IMG/VR virus record: IMGVR_UViG_2917802685_000001
Location: 1-64,000 of that record
Reading direction: 5' to 3' (one strand)
Source: a virus
Lineage: Duplodnaviria > Caudoviricetes
Length of the DNA: 64,000 nt
The stretch's first letter is position 1, and each line of letters starts with the position of its first letter. Position numbers and translations under genes: made by a program. The notes below the pieces were generated by a model. That model made no database searches. It saw only the letters and a program-made list of their open reading frames with translations, and was not told the DNA's origin. Below are positions 10,358 through 63,954 of the stretch, piece by piece.

Positions 10358-10402
10358 TGTTCGAGCAATGTGCCGCGCCCGCAAGGGGTGAGGAGGTGGC
10401 TC
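10358..10402 (+). promoter_or_regulatory. Late-gene motif upstream of gp25
   Basis: TGTTC at 10358, AAGGGGTGA at 10383. Confidence 0.6.
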
Positions 10403-54231: not shown

Positions 54232-54786
54232 ATGACCGAGAACCTGCGCCAGCGAGACGGCGACCAGCCGCTGCCCACCGAGGGCCAGGAGAACGTCCAG
54301 GACGCCCTGATCGAGCGCATCAAGGAGCGCCGCGCGCTGGGCATCCAGCGCTACGGCCGCCCGCTGCAGACCTTCAACGGCCGCAACGCCGTACGCGATG
54401 CCCTCGAAGAGGCCCTCGACCTCTCCACCTACCTCATGCAGGTCGAGATGGAGCAGAAGGCCGTACAGGCACGGATCAGGCATGCACTGACGCTGCACGT
54501 CTCCGGCCTCAGCGGACTGTGCCTCACCTGCAAGTCGGCGGCCCCCTGTGCCACCCGAGAGGCCCTCACCAGCTCGCGGCCCGCACTCAAGGTCACCATC
54601 ATCGAGCCTTCCGAGGAACTCGTCTGCTCGCCGGACGCCGTGGAGGAGATCCGGCGCCAGTTCGGCGTCACCGAGGAACAGACCGGCCTGACCGGCATAG
54701 GCAGCCTGATGGGCTTCCCCGTCTTCGTGGATGACGAACTTCCGCCAGGCACTGTCCGCCTGCAGCCCAGCACCCCCAAGAAGTAA
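54232..54786 (+). CDS. All-alpha NTP pyrophosphohydrolase-like protein
   Basis: RRALGIQRYGRPL...DALEEALDLSTYL. Confidence 0.5.
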   Translation: MTENLRQRDGDQPLPTEGQENVQDALIERIKERRALGIQRYGRPLQTFNGRNAVRDALEEALDLSTYLMQVEMEQKAVQARIRHALTLHVSGLSGLCLTCKSAAPCATREALTSSRPALKVTIIEPSEELVCSPDAVEEIRRQFGVTEEQTGLTGIGSLMGFPVFVDDELPPGTVRLQPSTPKK

Positions 54787-55700: not shown

Positions 55701-55739
55701 ATCCATTTTTCCATTGAACCGTTGAAGGAGAACACCGCC

Positions 55740-56213
55740 ATGTCCCGCAACCGCGAAATCAACCTGGGCCCCGTCGCCCTCGTCGTCGGCGCCATCGTCG
55801 CCCTCGCCCTCGTCGTCGGCGTGTTCATGGGCGCCATCGCAGGCTTCAAGGCGTTCGGCCGCTACCAGGCCGTCACCGACGCGAAGAACGCGGCCACGGT
55901 CGCCCGGATCAAGGCCAACAACGACGTCTCCGTCACCGGCATCCAGATCAAGAACCAACAGCAGCGCGTCCAGGTCGCCAAGCAGCAGGCCCAGATCCGG
56001 TTCGAGAACGCCAAGGGCATCCGCGAGTCCCAGGACGAGATCGCCAAGACCCTGACACCGCTGTACGTGCAGTTCGAGATGACCGAGGCCCTGAAGGAGA
56101 TCGCCAAGAGCGGCAAGAACTCCTCGGTGGTGTACATCCCCTCCGGCGCCAACGGCGTGCCGCTGGTCTCTGGCGTCAACGGCCAGCCGTCGGTCACCAG
56201 CCCGGCGAAGTAG
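55740..56213 (+). CDS. Membrane-anchored coiled-coil protein (SPFH C-terminal-like)
   Basis: N-terminal TM helix; IAKTLTPLYVQF...VVYIP. Confidence 0.6.
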   Translation: MSRNREINLGPVALVVGAIVALALVVGVFMGAIAGFKAFGRYQAVTDAKNAATVARIKANNDVSVTGIQIKNQQQRVQVAKQQAQIRFENAKGIRESQDEIAKTLTPLYVQFEMTEALKEIAKSGKNSSVVYIPSGANGVPLVSGVNGQPSVTSPAK

Positions 56214-56269: not shown

Positions 56270-58471
56270 ATGATCAGCAAGAACAACGAGGACACCTCGC
56301 CCCTGGCGAACTTTGATCCCACGGAGATTCACCAGCTGTTCCTGGGATTGGAGGTGCCCGATCCGATTACGTTCGTGGTCTCGCCGAGGTATCTGAACCG
56401 GCCAAACCTCTACCCGCGCCAGGCCACCCTCATGAAGGTGTTCTTCCTGCGCGAGGACCTCTTCACCGACTACGACTACCGGGTCGTCGCCGAGTGGGAC
56501 GAGTCCTACCGCACCGCCAAGTCCTCCAACGAACAGCGGGCCGCGCGCGCCGCTGAACTCGCCGAGACCAGCCCCGAAGCCGCCCTCGAAGCCGAGGTCG
56601 ACGGCATCATGACCGAGGCCCTCGACGCCATCGCCGCCCAGGCCCTGCTGGAGGGCAACGAGGACGCCCCCAAGATGCCCCTGTCCGGCTCCCCGGACCT
56701 CCTGGGCCGCATGCGCGCCTGCAAGGCTCTCGGCTACAGCTGGTTCAAAGAGATCCTCCTGGTCATGGGCCGCCGCGCAGGCAAGGGCCACATCAGCGCC
56801 CTGGCCATGGCCTACGTCCTGTGGTGCTACATGGCCAAGGGCGACCCCCAGGAGTTCTACGGCGTCGACCGCGACAAGAAGCTCGCCGTGCTGATCTTCG
56901 CCGGTAAGCGCGACCAGGCCAAACAGAACCTGTGGCGCGACCTCGTCAACGTCGTCACCGGCGGCCCGTGTTTCGCCCCCTACATCGCCGACAGCCTCGG
57001 CGAGAAGCTCTCCGTCTACGCGCCGAACGACTTCGTCCGCATGGAAGACATGCGCAAGCGCGGCATCAAGACCGCCATGGACATGGCCACCTTCCACATC
57101 CTGCCCAAGGAATCCACCGTCATGGCGGGCCGTGGCCCGGCCTCCATGATCCTCGGCTTCGACGAGATGGCCCACGTCGTCAACAGCGGCGCCAACCGCT
57201 CCGCCGGAGAGGTCTACGACGCCTCCACCCCCTCCCTCGACCAGTTCGGCAGAGACGGCTTCATCGTCGAGCCCAGCTCGCCGTGGGAGATGAGCGGCAA
57301 GTTCTACGACAACTGGCTGCGCGCCACCAGCTACGAGGACGACGGCACCCCCACCTACGCGAACGTCATGATGATCCAGCTCCCCAGCTGGGACGTCTAC
57401 CTCGACTGGCAGATCGCCCACGAACTGCCCCTCTTCCCCGAGGGCTTCACCGGCGACAACGGCGAGTACGCCGACTGCGACCCGCCCGGCTTCAAGCCCC
57501 TCAAGGGCGCCATCCAGAACTTCGACGAAGAGATGCGCAAGCTGGAGAAGGCCGACCCCGACACCTTCGCCGTCGAGCGCCGCGCCCAGTGGGCCACCGT
57601 CCTGGACGCCTACCTCAATCCGGACAAGGTCGAATCCGTCTTCGGCCCCTGGCACGAGCGCCCCGTCGAATACGGCAGCCCGCTCATCCTGCCCACCACC
57701 CAGGGCATCCTCGCCTACACCTACAAGGGCCACGCCGACCCCAGCTCCGTCAACTGCCGCTTCGGCGTCGCCCTCGCCCACACAGAGATCGACGCCGAGG
57801 GCCGCCCCCACGTCGTCTTCGACAAGATCCACTACTTCGATCCGGCCGACTTCCCGAACCACACCATCGACTACGAGGAAGTCGAGGACTGGATCTGGCA
57901 CGACATGATCGTCCCCTTCAGCCCCGACGACTTCACCTTCGACCAGTACCAGTCGGTCGGATCCATCCAGTCACTCGTCAAGCGGACCGCCAAGACGCGC
58001 CTGCCCAAGAAGGTCAACATCTGGGAGCGCACCGCCACCAACCAGATCAACTGGCGCTACGCCGAGACCTTCAAGGCCGCGATCAACATGGGCCTGGTCC
58101 ACGCGCCCGAGCACGAAGAGGGCATGCTGGAGCTGAAGTTCCTCCAGAAGAAGCCCGGCATCAACCGCGTCGATCACCCCACCATCGGTCCCGTCCAGAC
58201 CAAGGACATCGCCGATGCGATCATGATCACAACGTTCGCGCTCATCGGTGACTGGATCGAGGGCTACAAGGAGATGCTCAACGGCGCCAGGCCCGCTGGC
58301 GCCATGGTGGGTGGCCTGCACGGATCCAGCGCCCGCACCCCCGACATGGCCATGCCTGACCAGGACACACAGGCCCGCCTGAACGCCCTGCGCAGCTTCA
58401 CCCGCACCCGTACAGGACGCCAGGGCTGGGATCAAGGCCTCGGCCGCACAAGGTCCGGATATCGCCGCTGA
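56270..58471 (+). CDS. terL: Terminase large subunit
   Basis: YPRQ, MGRRAGKG (Walker A), ILGFDEMAH (Walker B), SSP; nuclease HADPS, TFDQY, KDIADA. Confidence 0.85.
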   Translation: MISKNNEDTSPLANFDPTEIHQLFLGLEVPDPITFVVSPRYLNRPNLYPRQATLMKVFFLREDLFTDYDYRVVAEWDESYRTAKSSNEQRAARAAELAETSPEAALEAEVDGIMTEALDAIAAQALLEGNEDAPKMPLSGSPDLLGRMRACKALGYSWFKEILLVMGRRAGKGHISALAMAYVLWCYMAKGDPQEFYGVDRDKKLAVLIFAGKRDQAKQNLWRDLVNVVTGGPCFAPYIADSLGEKLSVYAPNDFVRMEDMRKRGIKTAMDMATFHILPKESTVMAGRGPASMILGFDEMAHVVNSGANRSAGEVYDASTPSLDQFGRDGFIVEPSSPWEMSGKFYDNWLRATSYEDDGTPTYANVMMIQLPSWDVYLDWQIAHELPLFPEGFTGDNGEYADCDPPGFKPLKGAIQNFDEEMRKLEKADPDTFAVERRAQWATVLDAYLNPDKVESVFGPWHERPVEYGSPLILPTTQGILAYTYKGHADPSSVNCRFGVALAHTEIDAEGRPHVVFDKIHYFDPADFPNHTIDYEEVEDWIWHDMIVPFSPDDFTFDQYQSVGSIQSLVKRTAKTRLPKKVNIWERTATNQINWRYAETFKAAINMGLVHAPEHEEGMLELKFLQKKPGINRVDHPTIGPVQTKDIADAIMITTFALIGDWIEGYKEMLNGARPAGAMVGGLHGSSARTPDMAMPDQDTQARLNALRSFTRTRTGRQGWDQGLGRTRSGYRR

Positions 58472-58739: not shown

Positions 58740-58783
58740 TGTCCACCAGCTCTTCACCGACGTGAAGGGCTGGAGGTGCAGGG
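58740..58783 (+). promoter_or_regulatory. Late-gene motif (variant) with hairpin over the RBS
   Basis: TGTCC at 58740, AAGGGCTGG at 58765; CCAGCTCTTCA/TGAAGGGCTGG arms. Confidence 0.55.
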
Positions 58784-61471
58784 ATGACGGACATCAGCGC
58801 GACCAGCTTCTTCCGCCAGGCGGGCGTCGCCGACGGCGGCATCGACTTCGACCACGAAGAGACCGACACCGGCAGCTCGATCTGGCCGACCAGGATCAAG
58901 CTCAAGGCCCTGCACCCCGAGACCGGCGAGGAGATGGGCTTCCTCGACTACCAGGTGCCCCGCCGCAAGACCAACAAGATCACCGTCCATGAGCTGAAGA
59001 CCCACGAGGACTACCAGCGCAAGGGCGTCGGCTCCGCCCTCATGGACGAGATGCAGCGCCGCCACCCCGGCACGCCTGTAGATCACGGCGACCGCACCCC
59101 CGCCGGTAAGGCGTGGTGGAAGGGCTACACCGACGGCAAGAAGGTCACCCGGGGCCGAACCATGGCCACCCGCACGACGGCCGCCGCCCCGGAGACCTTC
59201 GCGCGCGGCGACGGCGAGGATTGGCTGGCGCACCGCCAGCGCGTCCGCCACGGCCTGTCCACGGGCCGCATCTCCTACCCGCAGGCCCGCGAGCACGGCT
59301 ACGACGGCGATGCGCGAGAGGACACCCGCGACAGCTGGACCGGACAGCACACCGAAGGCAAGGGCTGGCAGCCCCTGCCCCACCAGCTCTACCACACCAC
59401 CACCGACGCCGCCGGAGTCGCCGCCCACGGCCTGCGCAGCGGCGGAGAACTCGGTCAGGACAGGGGCCACGGTCTCGGCGGCACCCCCGAGTGGCTGTCC
59501 CTGACCGACCACCACGACAACGCCCACAACATGCTCGATGCGATGCACGAGTACCACGCCCACCTCAACGGCAAGACCAGCTTCCCTGACCTCCACCGAG
59601 CGGCCGAGAGCGGAGAGGGCGCCCAGCAGCCCTTCCACAAGCCCTTCGTGGACGGCATCTCGGAGATGTACAACGAGCACCACCGAGACTCGCTGATGCG
59701 GGGGAAGCGCATCGAGCCCGGCTTCGCCACCTACGACGAGGCCAAGGAGAAGGGCTGGACGCCACACCCGACCCTCCACAAGGACTTCGGCGAGGACAAG
59801 CACGGCCGCCACATCGGCACCGGCTGGGAGCGCGACTCCAACCTCGAAGAGCGCCACGACGAGTACGGAGCCTTCTCCCGCGCCCGCCAGTTCTCCGGCA
59901 ACGGCAAGCCCTCCGTGCTGTTCACCAGCAACGACCGCCGGGCGTTCGCCGACAAGGACCCCAGGAACTTCGCCGTCCTCCACGTCCGCCCCCGCCCCGG
60001 CGGCCACGGCTTCCCCGGCGGCGACAAGCACGAGTGGCGCACCGGCAGCGGCGACGCCGTTGAGGTCCACGGCGAGCCCATCCGCCGTCAGGCCCTACGC
60101 GTCACGGCGGCCGTCCAGGACGGCGACGACATCCCGTCCCGCCTCCTCAACCCCCACGGCCACCACGTCCGCGCCCGGGTCGAGGGCAACACGAACGTTG
60201 AGATGGTCCCGCGCCACGAGGTCGAGCGCTACGCCAGCCAGCCGACCGACGACGCGCACACCAAGGAGGTCGGCACCCACGTCGCCACCAGCGGCGAGAT
60301 GGAGCCCCTCCTCCTGCACTACCACCCCGCCAGCGGTGAGGCCTACCTCGGCGAGGGCAACCACCGCTTGCGCGCCGCCAAGGCCCTGGGTATGGACCAC
60401 GTCCCCCTGCGCGTGAGCCGCTCCAGCTACGGCCTGCCCGGCCCCGGCGTGAAGGTCCCCCAGGACCACCCCGCCATCGCGGCAGGCGGCCACGTCCCGG
60501 CCGACATCTACCCCAGCCACATCGGCCTCACCGCAGTGGACAAGCCCGCCATCCCGGAGGGTGACCTGCGCAGCGCCAGGAACGACTACAACCTCACCGG
60601 CCGCCCCCGCCTGGCGGCAGCCGACACCCCCGTGCCGGACAACACCCAGCCGTACCAGCACGAGCACGACTGGCTTCCCCACGGCCACTTCTTCGGCCCC
60701 GGGAAGAAGGGCCTGGACCCGCGCCTGTTCGACGAGAACGACCGGATGCACCCGATCGTCCGCCAGCACCTGCTGTCTCTGCTCAACGCCTTCTGGACCC
60801 CGAAGTACGGCGACTCCTGGCAGTCCTGGGCCCGCGTCTACCTCACCGGCTCCGAGGCCTCCCACTGGTACGGCAACGGCGACCTCGACGTCCTCATCGG
60901 CATTGACCACGAGGCCCTCAACCACCACGTCGACCACTTCACCGGCGAGCCGGACGACGCGGTCGACGAGCGCCTCACCAACGAGCTGCGCGAGGGCCTC
61001 AACGACGACCACCGGATGTTCCCCGGCCCGGACGGCAAGGACACCGGCCCCTGGGAGTCGACCTTCTACGTCAACCCGGGCTCGTACGACATCCGCGACC
61101 TCAAGCCCTACGCCGCCTACGACATCACCCGCGACGAGTGGGCCGTCAAGCCGGTCGAGGTCCCCGACGACTTCGGGCCCGAGAAGCTCCCCGAGTCCAC
61201 CTGGGACGTCCTCGACGCGCTGCAGAAGCTCATCGGCGCCATCCAGGAGCTGCCCGCCGGAACCCGGGAGCGCGAGGGCGCCGCGCTGTACGATTACCTC
61301 CACGCTGACCGCCACAGCGCTTTCGGCCCCGAGGGATCGGGCCTCTATGACCCTGCCAACGCTGTCTGGAAGGCCCTCGACAAGGCCCCCGGCAAGCCGC
61401 TGCAGCAGCTCATCGACTGGAAACACGCCCACGACGGGACCGCCGCCACGGACCTGGAGACCGCAGCATGA
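58784..61471 (+). CDS. Polyvalent protein 1: GNAT + ART-like + ParB/Srx-like + nucleotidyltransferase
   Basis: YQRKGVGSALM; LYHTT..GL..WLSLT..HEW; GEGNHRLRAA; LTGSEAS..DLDVLI. Confidence 0.75.
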   Translation: MTDISATSFFRQAGVADGGIDFDHEETDTGSSIWPTRIKLKALHPETGEEMGFLDYQVPRRKTNKITVHELKTHEDYQRKGVGSALMDEMQRRHPGTPVDHGDRTPAGKAWWKGYTDGKKVTRGRTMATRTTAAAPETFARGDGEDWLAHRQRVRHGLSTGRISYPQAREHGYDGDAREDTRDSWTGQHTEGKGWQPLPHQLYHTTTDAAGVAAHGLRSGGELGQDRGHGLGGTPEWLSLTDHHDNAHNMLDAMHEYHAHLNGKTSFPDLHRAAESGEGAQQPFHKPFVDGISEMYNEHHRDSLMRGKRIEPGFATYDEAKEKGWTPHPTLHKDFGEDKHGRHIGTGWERDSNLEERHDEYGAFSRARQFSGNGKPSVLFTSNDRRAFADKDPRNFAVLHVRPRPGGHGFPGGDKHEWRTGSGDAVEVHGEPIRRQALRVTAAVQDGDDIPSRLLNPHGHHVRARVEGNTNVEMVPRHEVERYASQPTDDAHTKEVGTHVATSGEMEPLLLHYHPASGEAYLGEGNHRLRAAKALGMDHVPLRVSRSSYGLPGPGVKVPQDHPAIAAGGHVPADIYPSHIGLTAVDKPAIPEGDLRSARNDYNLTGRPRLAAADTPVPDNTQPYQHEHDWLPHGHFFGPGKKGLDPRLFDENDRMHPIVRQHLLSLLNAFWTPKYGDSWQSWARVYLTGSEASHWYGNGDLDVLIGIDHEALNHHVDHFTGEPDDAVDERLTNELREGLNDDHRMFPGPDGKDTGPWESTFYVNPGSYDIRDLKPYAAYDITRDEWAVKPVEVPDDFGPEKLPESTWDVLDALQKLIGAIQELPAGTREREGAALYDYLHADRHSAFGPEGSGLYDPANAVWKALDKAPGKPLQQLIDWKHAHDGTAATDLETAA

Positions 61472-63954
61472 CCGAGTTCAACGCCGTCGCCCACTTCCGC
61501 CAGGCTGCCTGGTCCGACGAGGAAGGCCTGTCCGACAAGACCCGGGCCGCCGTCGACCGGGCCGAGGGCGACTGGCACACCCACCGGCAGTACCTCGCCG
61601 AAGACCACATGAACAAGCAACTGGACCCGGAGACCAACCGGCTCGCCCACCAGGGCCACGCCCAGCGCACCGCCAACAAGATCACCGACGCCGAGGGCCT
61701 GCCCCCCGTCAAGGTCCTCGTCCACGACTCACCGAACGTCGCCGGGCGCGGCACAGCCCACGACGGCAGCCCGGTCATCGCGCTCGGCGAGAACACCCTG
61801 AAGCACACCACCCTCATCCACGAGCTGACGCACCACATGCGCCAGCCCCACGAGGACGACCCCGACCACAACGCGGGCGGCTTCTACGGCGACTACATCG
61901 GCATGCTGCAGCGCCACCACCCCGACCCCGACGCGTACGTGCACATGATGGACGCCAACAAGCTCGCCGTGGCCCACATGCGCGCCCACCCCGGCAACTT
62001 CCCACCCCGGACCGCGAGTGCGGCCTACGATGCCCCAGAAGGAGGCAGCCATGGATCCGAACGAGCAGGACGAGACGATGGACCCCGAGGTCGAAGCGGA
62101 GATCCTGCAGAGGCACGACACTCCCGGGGAGCGCAGCACGGTCAGCGTGAACGAGCTGCGGCACCGGGCCGCCGTGTCCGCGCAGCAGCAGGCGTAGAGC
62201 GCCACCCCGAGCTGCAGGGCGACCTCGACCGCCTCGGCGGAGGCGCCCGCCACGTCCAGGAGACCATCGACGCCCTGCACCACGGCGGCTCCGGCGGCGC
62301 CGTCACCTACCCGCTCTCGCACCCGCTGGAGGGCTGGCACGCAGCCCTCACCAGCGGCGGCCACCAGGTCGTGCACCGGCACGACGGCGAAACCCTCCAC
62401 GTCGGCTACGCCGGACACAACATCGCCGACGCCGAGCAGCGCCTGGGCGCCAGCAACGGAAACGGCTCCCTGCCGGTGGAGTTCCACAAGGGCGCCGAGA
62501 AAGACTTCGACGGCCTCCACCCCGAGGTCCAGGAGAAGGCCCTCAACACCATCGACCGCCTCGCACGCGGCGAGCAGCACAAGTACGACCACGCCCTCAA
62601 CGGCGGACAATGGGAGAGCGGCGGCTGGCGATCGGCCCGCGCCGACTTCCTGCACCGCGTCACCCACCGCTTCGAGGACGCCGACGGCAACCCCACTCCT
62701 CCCGAGCGCGCGGCCCGGCTGTTCGTCGGCCACATTGGCCCGCACAACTACGGCGACGCCGCCAAGCGCCTCTCCAGCCTGACCGGCTTCTTCCGGCAGG
62801 CCAGCCTGCCGCAGGAGTGGTACCACGGCTCCGGGGCCGTCTTCGACCGCTTCGATCCGAGCAAGGACAAGACCGTCCAGGACGAGAGCGCCGAGCCCAA
62901 GCACTGGAACAGCCACCTCGGCTCCCACTTCTCCAGCGACCACCGCGTCGCCCAGGAGTTCGCCCAGCGCCAGGGCGGCGGCCACGTCTACCACGTCCAG
63001 CTCAACCTGCAGAACCCCAAGCACTACGAGTCCGAGCACGACCTGGACAAGGAAGCTGTCCTGTGGGCTCACCACAACGGCCACGACATGGGGCCGTCGG
63101 TGAGCAAACCGGCCTACCGCGAGCACATCGAGCCGGACGAGTGGCAGTTCTTCCCCAAGTACGACGACCACGGCGACCCCCGGCCGAACACCCAAGAGAT
63201 CGCCCACGGCTTCCGTGACCACCTCAAGGCCCAGGGGCACGACGGCATCACCTACGGCAACGAGTTCGAGGGCGCCCACAACGGCTTCCACGCCGGAGAA
63301 CGGCACCTCAGCGCTATCGCCTTCCACCCTGACCAGGTCACCATCACGCAGCGGCACAGAGGCAACGAGCCCCACACCGCCGCCCTGCAACTGACCGAGG
63401 CCGAAAACCGTCTGCTGCAGCGTCAGGCGGCGGCCGTCGAGAACGGCAGTGGCGTGATGGTTGCGTTCGTCCCGCCGCACGAGGTGGCAGAGCAACTCGC
63501 CCTGCACGGCGGCCAATTGGTCGATGACCTGCACATCACCCTGGCGTACCTGGGCAATGTGGCCGACTACACCAAAGAGCAGCTGACACTGCTGCCGCAA
63601 TTGGTTTCGGCCTGGGCAATGAGGCAAAAGGCAGTTACGATCCACATCGGAGGCGTTGGAACGTTCAACAACGCCTACAAAGACCAGCACGTCCTGTGGG
63701 CGCACCCCGACATACCCGGTGGGGTGCAGATGCACGTCAGCCTGGCTGACTACCTGGAACGGTACGGGTACCGTCTTCCCAGTGAGCACGGCTGGACGGC
63801 CCATATGACGCTGCAATACGTCGACCGGCACAAGCGGTTCATGCCGCAGCTGCCAGAAGTCGGCTGGGAGGCGACCGAGGTGGTCACCTTTGTCGGAGCG
63901 GCTCGCCACGCCGCGCGCCTCGGCCTCCGTCCCAGCACACCCACCACGCTCTAG
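61468..63954 (+). CDS. Polyvalent protein 2: zincin + two RelE/ParE-like + ART-PolyVal-like + 2H phosphoesterase
   Basis: HELTH; VEFHKGAEKDF..HRVTHRF..HIGPH; WYHGS..HFS..LQNP..GHDGI; LHITL...AHMTL. Confidence 0.75.
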   Translation: MTEFNAVAHFRQAAWSDEEGLSDKTRAAVDRAEGDWHTHRQYLAEDHMNKQLDPETNRLAHQGHAQRTANKITDAEGLPPVKVLVHDSPNVAGRGTAHDGSPVIALGENTLKHTTLIHELTHHMRQPHEDDPDHNAGGFYGDYIGMLQRHHPDPDAYVHMMDANKLAVAHMRAHPGNFPPRTASAAYDAPEGGSHGSERAGRDDGPRGRSGDPAEARHSRGAQHGQRERAAAPGRRVRAAAGVERHPELQGDLDRLGGGARHVQETIDALHHGGSGGAVTYPLSHPLEGWHAALTSGGHQVVHRHDGETLHVGYAGHNIADAEQRLGASNGNGSLPVEFHKGAEKDFDGLHPEVQEKALNTIDRLARGEQHKYDHALNGGQWESGGWRSARADFLHRVTHRFEDADGNPTPPERAARLFVGHIGPHNYGDAAKRLSSLTGFFRQASLPQEWYHGSGAVFDRFDPSKDKTVQDESAEPKHWNSHLGSHFSSDHRVAQEFAQRQGGGHVYHVQLNLQNPKHYESEHDLDKEAVLWAHHNGHDMGPSVSKPAYREHIEPDEWQFFPKYDDHGDPRPNTQEIAHGFRDHLKAQGHDGITYGNEFEGAHNGFHAGERHLSAIAFHPDQVTITQRHRGNEPHTAALQLTEAENRLLQRQAAAVENGSGVMVAFVPPHEVAEQLALHGGQLVDDLHITLAYLGNVADYTKEQLTLLPQLVSAWAMRQKAVTIHIGGVGTFNNAYKDQHVLWAHPDIPGGVQMHVSLADYLERYGYRLPSEHGWTAHMTLQYVDRHKRFMPQLPEVGWEATEVVTFVGAARHAARLGLRPSTPTTL
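62051..62197 (+). CDS. Nested +1-frame 48-aa ORF, putative antitoxin
   Basis: GAAGGAGG RBS at 62038-62045; MDPNEQDETMDPEVEAEILQRHDTPGERSTVSVNELRHRAAVSAQQQA; ends where the first RelE-like domain starts. Confidence 0.6.
   Translation: MDPNEQDETMDPEVEAEILQRHDTPGERSTVSVNELRHRAAVSAQQQA

Follow-up and report, generated by a model that had tools for sequence, protein, structure and literature searches.

The internal proteins IPI-III and Alt of phage T4 carry a capsid-targeting leader that is cut by the prohead protease gp21 after a Glu residue (Leu/Ile-x-Glu), and these cargo proteins are single-domain products of separate genes. The prohead proteases of T4- and HK97-type phages share the fold of the herpesvirus assemblin (MEROPS S21), whose release and maturation sites follow the pattern (Val/Leu/Ile)-x-Ala|Ser. 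In the phiKZ-like phage SPN3US, the head protease gp245 processes both head proteins and ejection proteins, cutting after A-x-E at sites established by mass spectrometry; the N-terminal propeptides are between 20 and 254 residues long, some being cut several times (PMC10052503). For the polyvalent proteins of phages and conjugative elements, in which two to fifteen effector domains are joined in one chain, packaging and proteolytic processing have been predicted, with a zincin domain proposed as the processor (Iyer, Burroughs, Anand, de Souza and Aravind 2017; PMC5512222). That account does not contain the word 'linker', and the portions of it drawn on here define neither a junction or cleavage motif nor an N-terminal leader. 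Here we describe two adjacent genes for polyvalent proteins, referred to as protein 1 and protein 2, at positions 58,784 to 63,954 of the first 64 kb (the window) of the 154,158-bp virus record IMGVR_UViG_2917802685_000001 (68% G+C), which belongs to a Bxz1-like Streptomyces myovirus. A recurring joint motif stands between the modules of these proteins, a conserved leader opens each chain, and a small antitoxin-like gene is overprinted within protein 2.

Protein 1 (P0001, 895 aa) is encoded on the plus strand at 58784-61471, with a G+C content at third codon positions (GC3) of 0.94. Protein 2 (P0002, 828 aa) follows on the same strand at 61468-63954, and its start overlaps the stop codon of protein 1 (ATGA), which suggests that the two open reading frames (ORFs) are translationally coupled. 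Both chains are polyvalent proteins, made of four and five modules of different folds. Protein 1 comprises a GNAT acetyltransferase, an ADP-ribosyltransferase (ART)-fold, a ParB/Srx-like and a nucleotidyltransferase (NTase)-like module, while protein 2 is composed of a zincin-like module, two RelE-like modules, an ART-PolyVal module and a 2H phosphoesterase module. About nine enzyme-like domains had been named in the original prediction, made from the sequence alone, and both their count and their names were right, the ParB, NTase and zincin assignments being the least secure. The modules, unrelated to one another as is typical of the polyvalent class, also match its repertoire, which includes ART-PolyVal (a Pfam family named for the class), ParB-like, GNAT, NTase and zincin domains, as well as RNase-type toxins. 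The genomic context is likewise that of a phage with a portal-terminase system, with the gene of the terminase large subunit (terL) adjacent to the pair and genes for the portal, the capsid protein and the head protease elsewhere in the 154-kb genome. Two features set the present proteins apart from that account, namely joints whose code recurs in the head-protease protein and the overprinting of a small gene in an ORF.

The ten junction strings that had been read in the two proteins are all present where the original prediction had placed them. In protein 1, F-F-R-Q-A-G closes the N-terminal leader (residues 1-14, 58784-58825; this and all the features that follow are on the plus strand). The modules are then separated by R-T-T-A-A-A (junction 1, residues 130-135, 59171-59188), R-R-Q-A-L-R-V-T-A-A (junction 2, residues 434-443, 60083-60112) and P-R-L-A-A-A (junction 3, residues 608-613, 60605-60622). 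In protein 2, H-F-R-Q-A-A closes the leader (residues 1-14, 61468-61509) and a disordered linker (residues 181-242, 62008-62193) holds R-T-A-S and two copies of R-A-A-A. Further along the chain, F-F-R-Q-A-S (residues 441-446, 62788-62805) represents an internal copy of the leader end, which is kept before the ART module in the relatives, and Q-R-Q-A-A-A (residues 651-656, 63418-63435) precedes the 2H module. Two strings of protein 2 need qualification: QRLGAS has a non-canonical spacing and RVRAAA lies where the primary coding frame is the +1 frame.

The sequence FRQA occurs three times in the two proteins, at both N-termini and before the ART-PolyVal module, just as had been reported, while 0.01 copies are expected. 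The six-frame translation of the whole genome contains four copies in all, the fourth being probably non-coding. RQA[AGS] was observed four times in the two proteins with an expectation of 0.11, and R.A[AGS] ten times compared with 2.9 in shuffles (P=0.0008). These counts are modest, and position is the stronger evidence. Indeed, in the AlphaFold models the low-confidence stretches correspond to the two leaders, both with a predicted confidence score (pLDDT) below 50, and to every joint, and the stretches of pLDDT<50, with 27% of the residues, contain all but one of the ten R.A[AGS] sites (P=6e-5). In particular, low values are found at residues 116-133 at junction 1 and from residue 435 at junction 2 of protein 1, as well as at residues 436-450 and 634-656 of protein 2, where the internal leader-end copy and the Q-R-Q-A-A-A junction are located.

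The relatives of the two proteins provide a second line of evidence. About 100 homologous proteins of 500-1550 aa, collected from IMG/VR contigs and from the protein collection, carry the same modules in varying order and number. The C-terminal module is fixed, being always the NTase in the protein 1 type and always the 2H module in the protein 2 type. The alignments with these relatives break off in protein 1 at residues 129-137, 437-445 and 606-624, where junctions 1, 2 and 3 are found, and at residues 179-191, around 243, 327-337, 436-450 and 630-657 of protein 2. The starts of the BLAST segments (high-scoring segment pairs) are four-fold enriched at the motif, whereas three control motifs are flat. 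When the distinct upstream contexts of each module are listed, unrelated upstream modules all end in basic-x-Ala-Ala/Ser, and the joint consensus [R/K/H]-x-A-[A/S] is present in 87 of 184 distinct internal junction contexts, compared with about 3.4% of 10-residue windows. At junction 3, [RKH]xA[AS] is found in 23 of the 48 distinct contexts upstream of the module, and the motif occupies the Q-R-Q-A-A-A junction in 20 of 31. The leader, S-A-T-x-F-F-R-x-A-[A/S], opens every chain in one of 46 distinct variants and is reused at about 36 internal joints, often after an extra basic-Thr-Ala, with 85 distinct 14-mers overall. Thus, the R-x-A motif that was said to delimit the domains does lie at their boundaries, where it coincides with linkers and module breakpoints, and it is kept across the module-shuffled relatives, so that neither of the two sequence-level objections named in the original prediction materialised; the true signal is, however, wider and consists of [R/K/H]-x-A-[A/S] together with a longer leader. 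Two further candidates for the leader were discarded. A possible third leader-bearing protein at 54731 (M-T-N-F-R-Q-A) has its ATG inside a 56-nt overlap with the upstream ORF, a later Met being the likelier start, and an F-F-R-x-A match in the related genome G001 lies in a non-coding frame (GC3 0.48).

The joint code is also present in the protein that carries the head-maturation protease. The head module of the phage, at 125.9-146 kb of the genome, contains the portal gene, the gene for a 1197-aa head-protease fusion protein (genome 139471-143064), a gene that may encode the scaffold, whose 301-aa product matches no family, and the capsid gene. The N-terminal part of the 1197-aa protein matches the head-maturation-protease family phrog_18299 (E 2.7e-23), and for the protease domain Atlas gives a lead to Peptidase_S77. 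Like the polyvalent proteins, it is built from cassettes, among them ParB-like and DUF7178 domains, and the joint motif is found at its domain borders; its homologues in three related genomes carry other cassettes and the same code. The shared code supports a link between the polyvalent proteins and the head protease. The capsid proteins of this phage and of Cali, Finch and SCentae all retain R-x-A/S-K at the N-terminus, whereas the residues in front of it differ. A literature search for measured capsid or head-protease cleavage or for proteomics in Bxz1-type phages found nothing.

Two proteins of Mycobacterium phage Cali may be mentioned alongside. The N-terminal part of gp93 (L029 4543-8403), which is annotated as 'tape measure', is 44% identical to the head-protease domain described here, and its gene lies directly upstream of the capsid gene; judged by this similarity, the label is probably a misannotation. 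The protein beside it, gp92 (1278 aa), contains many basic-x-Ala-Ala/Ser sites, including H-F-R-T-A-A.

The position of the pair next to terL and under a late motif, which was part of the original prediction, is also supported. The terL gene (56270-58471; phrog_2, E 1.2e-11) is the direct upstream neighbour, and a bipartite promoter-like motif, TGTSS-N16-26-AAGGRSTG, is located at 58740-58772, 12 nt 5' of protein 1. This motif has 11 plus-strand sites in the genome, compared with 0.26 in shuffles, and stands before genes of the tail and the tape measure as well as before terL, protein 1 and the portal gene; the sites include window positions 10358, 10839, 14079, 19153, 39519, 56221 and 58740 and genome position 125865. 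Since the motif is common to virion genes, both polyvalent genes are most likely expressed together with them, and such an expression suits enzymes destined for the next host and not for the one in which they are made.

Collectively, these data suggest that the two genes may encode late-expressed, translationally coupled effector chains that would be targeted by their leaders, cut by the head protease and injected, and we assign this reading a probability of roughly one half. Conserved joints lie in the linkers, and from them we infer the packaging, targeting, cleavage and injection of the chains. The leader would bring each chain to the assembling prohead, where the head-maturation protease contained in the 1197-aa fusion protein would cut at or beside the Ala-Ala/Ser pair. 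Cutting would remove the leader and free single enzymes of about 10-35 kDa, which would then be injected alongside the DNA to take over the host or to counter its defences. The effectors may act by acetylation, ADP-ribosylation and, in the case of the RelE modules, mRNA cleavage, whereas the 2H module could remove 2',3'-cyclic or 2'-5' nucleotide signals or RNA ends. In the producing cell, the product of the overprinted 48-aa gene would confer protection from RelE module 1. A broader proposal is put forward tentatively, as somewhat short of probable: the leader and the basic-x-Ala-Ala/Ser joints might constitute a cargo code of Bxz1-like actinophages that suffices for the loading, release and injection of any cassette, with toxic cassettes accompanied by an overprinted antitoxin.

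Such a system would have several points in common with those already described. As in the internal proteins and Alt of T4, a short conserved leader (about 10-14 residues) has a hydrophobic pair shortly before the presumed cut, an ADP-ribosyltransferase is part of the cargo and the same motif is expected on other head proteins; the differences are that several enzymes share each chain here and that the presumed P1 residue is Ala. The likeness to SPN3US resides in a three-residue motif that defines the substrates, ejected proteins among them. The motif and the lineage differ, and the sites were measured there, whereas here they are predicted from sequence. With assemblin, the chains would share Ala at P1 and Ser/Ala at P1', at cut sites that are here presumed, and a protease made fused to head components. 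The P3 residue is basic here and aliphatic in herpesviruses, and for the fold of the present protease the Peptidase_S77 match is a lead only.

A number of observations weigh against this reading. In protein 1 alone, R.A[AGS] is found three times compared with 1.4, which is not significant, the strict motif is matched by only about half of the junction contexts, and the joint between the two RelE modules does not carry it. Ala-rich linkers are expected at 68% G+C, the low pLDDT derives partly from shallow folding alignments, and the P values overstate the support because the relatives are not independent samples. In addition, the polyvalent genes adjoin terL, about 65 kb from the head module, and the site at the N-terminus of the capsid protein has Lys, and not Ala/Ser, after Ala. 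Finally, the virion RNA polymerase of phage N4 is packaged uncut despite its zincin domain (PMC5512222).

The disordered linker of protein 2 hosts a second gene. Residues 181-240 show a GC3 of 0.45 and a G+C content at first codon positions (GC1) of up to 0.97, which is the signature of another coding frame. Indeed, the +1 frame contains an overprinted gene of 48 aa at 62051-62197, with AAGGAGG 6 nt 5' of its ATG. Six distinct relatives share the ribosome-binding site (RBS), the ATG and the protein, the substitutions in the small gene are distributed 53/37/71 over codon positions 1/2/3, and its amino-acid identity exceeds that of the polyprotein frame. With first codon positions that are nearly all G or C, the polyprotein frame cannot close there and is thus read through as a disordered Arg/Gly/Ala linker, and the conserved peptide at the start of this linker is the RBS of the small gene translated in the polyprotein frame. 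The small gene, whose product is acidic, stops exactly at the start of RelE module 1, which is devoid of a start codon of its own. On the basis of this position, the gene probably encodes an antitoxin that would neutralise RelE module 1 in the producing cell; searches of Pfam, NCBIfam and PHROGs returned no family match for the 48-aa protein. The polyprotein frame retains R-x-A-A/T-A before the RelE module also where the small gene has diverged at its C-terminal end.

The arrangement recalls the RelBE, YefM-YoeB and HigBA pairs, in that two RelE-fold modules (Z about 10) are present and a small acidic, RBS-bearing gene ends at the first toxin module. It differs from them in that the toxin has no start of its own and lies inside a polyprotein, and in that the small gene occupies another frame and is without a match to any antitoxin family. 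Public gene calls place the start of protein 2 and of its relatives within RelE module 1 or shortly behind it, giving for example 527 aa here and 355-382 aa in the relatives, presumably on account of the overprinted stretch. A search for shorter single-module forms yielded only truncated gene calls starting inside RelE module 1.

Among the alternatives to cleavage by the head protease, the serious one is that no cleavage takes place at all. The motif and the leader would then be conserved flexible joints serving cassette exchange, or fossil in-frame gene starts, and the chains would work as intact multi-enzymes, either packaged or cytoplasmic. The order of the cassettes varies freely and the internal copies of the leader do resemble fossil gene starts; moreover, the N4 virion RNA polymerase, ArdC and TraC1 are transferred uncut (PMC5512222). 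A motif of 12 nt is, however, too short for homologous recombination, and the retention of R-x-A-A/T-A in the polyprotein frame next to the diverged end of the small gene likewise speaks against this alternative. In particular, this alternative is weakened by the finding that the motif follows the leader at true N-termini, where nothing has been joined, and by the persistence of the basic residue and of Ala-Ala/Ser between wholly different flanks. We consider intact chains unlikely, though clearly worth reckoning with.

A lower likelihood is attributed to the possibility that the chains are cut, in cis or in trans and before packaging or after injection, by the zincin module of protein 2 (residues 15-180, 61510-62007). 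Its HExxH sequence is invariant in 20 of 20 homologous modules, at identities as low as 27%, and the fold is weakly similar to that of SprT-, M1- and M48-type peptidases (VIA Z 5.4-6.2); no Pfam peptidase family was matched at E<=5, and the module is a candidate for the MPTase-PolyVal type of metallopeptidase found in the polyvalent class. Processing by a zincin is also the model proposed for polyvalent proteins generally (Iyer et al. 2017; PMC5512222). On the other hand, tblastn searches covering about 8 kb on each side found no zincin module in several relatives whose proteins retain the leader and the joints, although unrecognised peptidase modules may be present there. The absence of the module where the motifs are kept favours a protease acting in trans, and the same motif flanks the cassettes of the head-protease fusion protein, so that a role of the zincin as the processing enzyme appears rather improbable. 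Cleavage by yet another protease, be it a host enzyme, for which a precedent exists in staphylococcal phage 80-alpha, where host Prp cleaves the leaders of capsid and scaffold at Phe-Phe-Ala|Ser, or the product of the 163-aa ORF directly upstream of terL (55722-56213), which weakly matches the 'protease' family phrog_11227 (E 7.7e-6), is very improbable, as this ORF has no Pfam match and only weak pilin-like or Rv1733c-like NCBIfam matches, and the motif link to the head-protease fusion protein needs no additional component.

As to the single modules, that at the start of protein 1 (residues 15-130, 58826-59173) resembles GNAT structures with VIA Z scores of 8-9.5. Pfam GNAT families are matched by 16 of 24 homologues, with a best E of 2.3e-10, and the module of protein 1 itself is below the Pfam cut-off (22.1 vs 27). 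The ART-fold module that follows (residues 136-437, 59189-60094) is KptA/Tpt1-like (9ld3_A, Z 9.0, root mean square deviation (rmsd) 2.5 over 87 residues), and DUF4433, PTS_2-RNA and Arr are its leads in Atlas. PDB sequence searches returned nothing useful for the ART module or for the head-protease domain. The third module (residues 444-610, 60113-60613) is assigned as ParB/Srx-like on a Pfam ParB_N match at E 0.058, weak PHROG ParB matches and two homologues at E 0.0011, with a low-confidence model; NCBI names one relative (P0010) ParB/Srx. The C-terminal NTase-like module (residues 614-895, 60623-61468) displays a G-S...D-x-D signature like that of Pol-beta-type enzymes (G-S-x(9-13)-D-x-D/E), whose residues G689, S690, D700 and D702 are invariant across 24 sequences, and the support from its fold is represented by one weak Foldseek match, to TUT7 (E 0.02). 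The fold searches for the NTase, ParB and zincin modules used whole-chain models, whose hit lists were dominated by GNAT, 2H and RelE.

In protein 2, the zincin module and the linker are followed by a RelE/YoeB-like module 1 (residues 243-327, 62194-62448), with a VIA Z of 10.3 to YoeB over residues 240-321 and of 9.9 to RelE1 of M. tuberculosis, to which Foldseek adds YafQ and RelK. The RelE/HigB-like module 2 (residues 329-440, 62452-62787) gives VIA Z scores of 9.7 to YoeB, over residues 332-430, and 9.3 to HigB1. The ART-PolyVal ADP-ribosyltransferase module (residues 447-640, 62806-63387) matches PF18760 with an E of 1.4e-9 and 39.2 bits, compared with a cut-off of 31.2. This module (residues 447-638, 62806-63381) also aligns weakly with residues 1419-1610 of chain B of 9k3a (Z 6.5, rmsd 6.1, Foldseek E 0.009), the pre-ejectosome of cyanophage A4, in which chain B is a solved virion-internal ejection protein; this similarity is a lead only. 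The last module (residues 657-828, 63436-63951) is a LigT-like 2H phosphoesterase, as indicated by Pfam (E 2.1e-10) and by a VIA Z of 16.9 to drCPDase. Both its H-x-T motifs are invariant (H689, T691, H779, T781), and 2H was the sole match in two further profile searches.

A 2H domain that is 31-35% identical to this last module is found in the 'capsid maturation protease and MuF-like fusion proteins' of cultured Streptomyces phages such as TurkishDelight and BabyGotBac, which are large head-morphogenesis proteins encoded between the portal and capsid genes; this counts in favour of the proposed reading. In TurkishDelight (L039 5128-8571), the fusion protein has 1147 aa and is encoded between the portal and capsid genes, and its 2H domain is 35% identical. 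These MuF-like fusions differ from the present proteins in having a MuF-type anchor, in belonging to another phage lineage and in the position of their gene.

The two proteins had also been described as Cys-free and His-rich. Cys is indeed absent from both, but the trait is not conserved, as the relatives contain from 0 to 10 Cys per protein and several other large proteins of the genome are Cys-free as well; Cys-freeness was thus rejected as a selected trait and is best regarded as incidental. The richness in His is a firmer property. His accounts for 6.9% of the residues of protein 1 and 9.1% of those of protein 2, compared with 2.74% in the proteome, which makes them the top two among the genome proteins of at least 150 aa. 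In every module, regardless of fold, the His content is 5-13%; it is 5.7-9.8% in the relatives, in which the property is therefore conserved, and 5.1% in the head-protease fusion protein.

The phage is a Bxz1-like Streptomyces myovirus. Its capsid protein is 59% identical to the counterparts in cluster C mycobacteriophages (Bxz1, Cali), Rhodococcus phage Finch and Gordonia phages, and homologues of both polyvalent proteins are located on 150-157 kb contigs in assemblies of Streptomyces isolates. The close relatives (G001, G002 and those in NCBI Streptomyces assemblies) each form one contig of 150-157 kb, and direct terminal repeats are present in one IMG/VR relative, which is consistent with an extrachromosomal phage in cultured strains. 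The exact DNA of the locus is present in isolate-sized sequencing runs of two studies, with no RNA run among those listed, and a megablast of the 5.2-kb stretch against cultured phages gave no match.

All in all, polyvalent and probably packaged effectors are already known as a kind, and what is probably new here, as far as sequence comparison can tell, is a defined junction and leader code together with an embedded antitoxin-like gene. The 2017 prediction of the packaging and processing of polyvalent proteins, in the portions considered here, lacked a defined processing signal, for which the leader and the joint code are a candidate. The overprinted antitoxin-like gene would be unusual, since it would represent a toxin-antitoxin pair absorbed into a polyprotein. 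The presence of the exact DNA in isolate sequencing runs and of relatives in Streptomyces isolates makes experiments appear feasible. If the proposed reading is true, the leader would be testable as a tag that loads foreign proteins into capsids, and one would know the cleavage specificity of a phage head protease that, like herpesvirus assemblin, has Ala at P1. Moreover, the set of effectors injected by this group of actinophages would become predictable from sequence, its members being exchangeable as cassettes.

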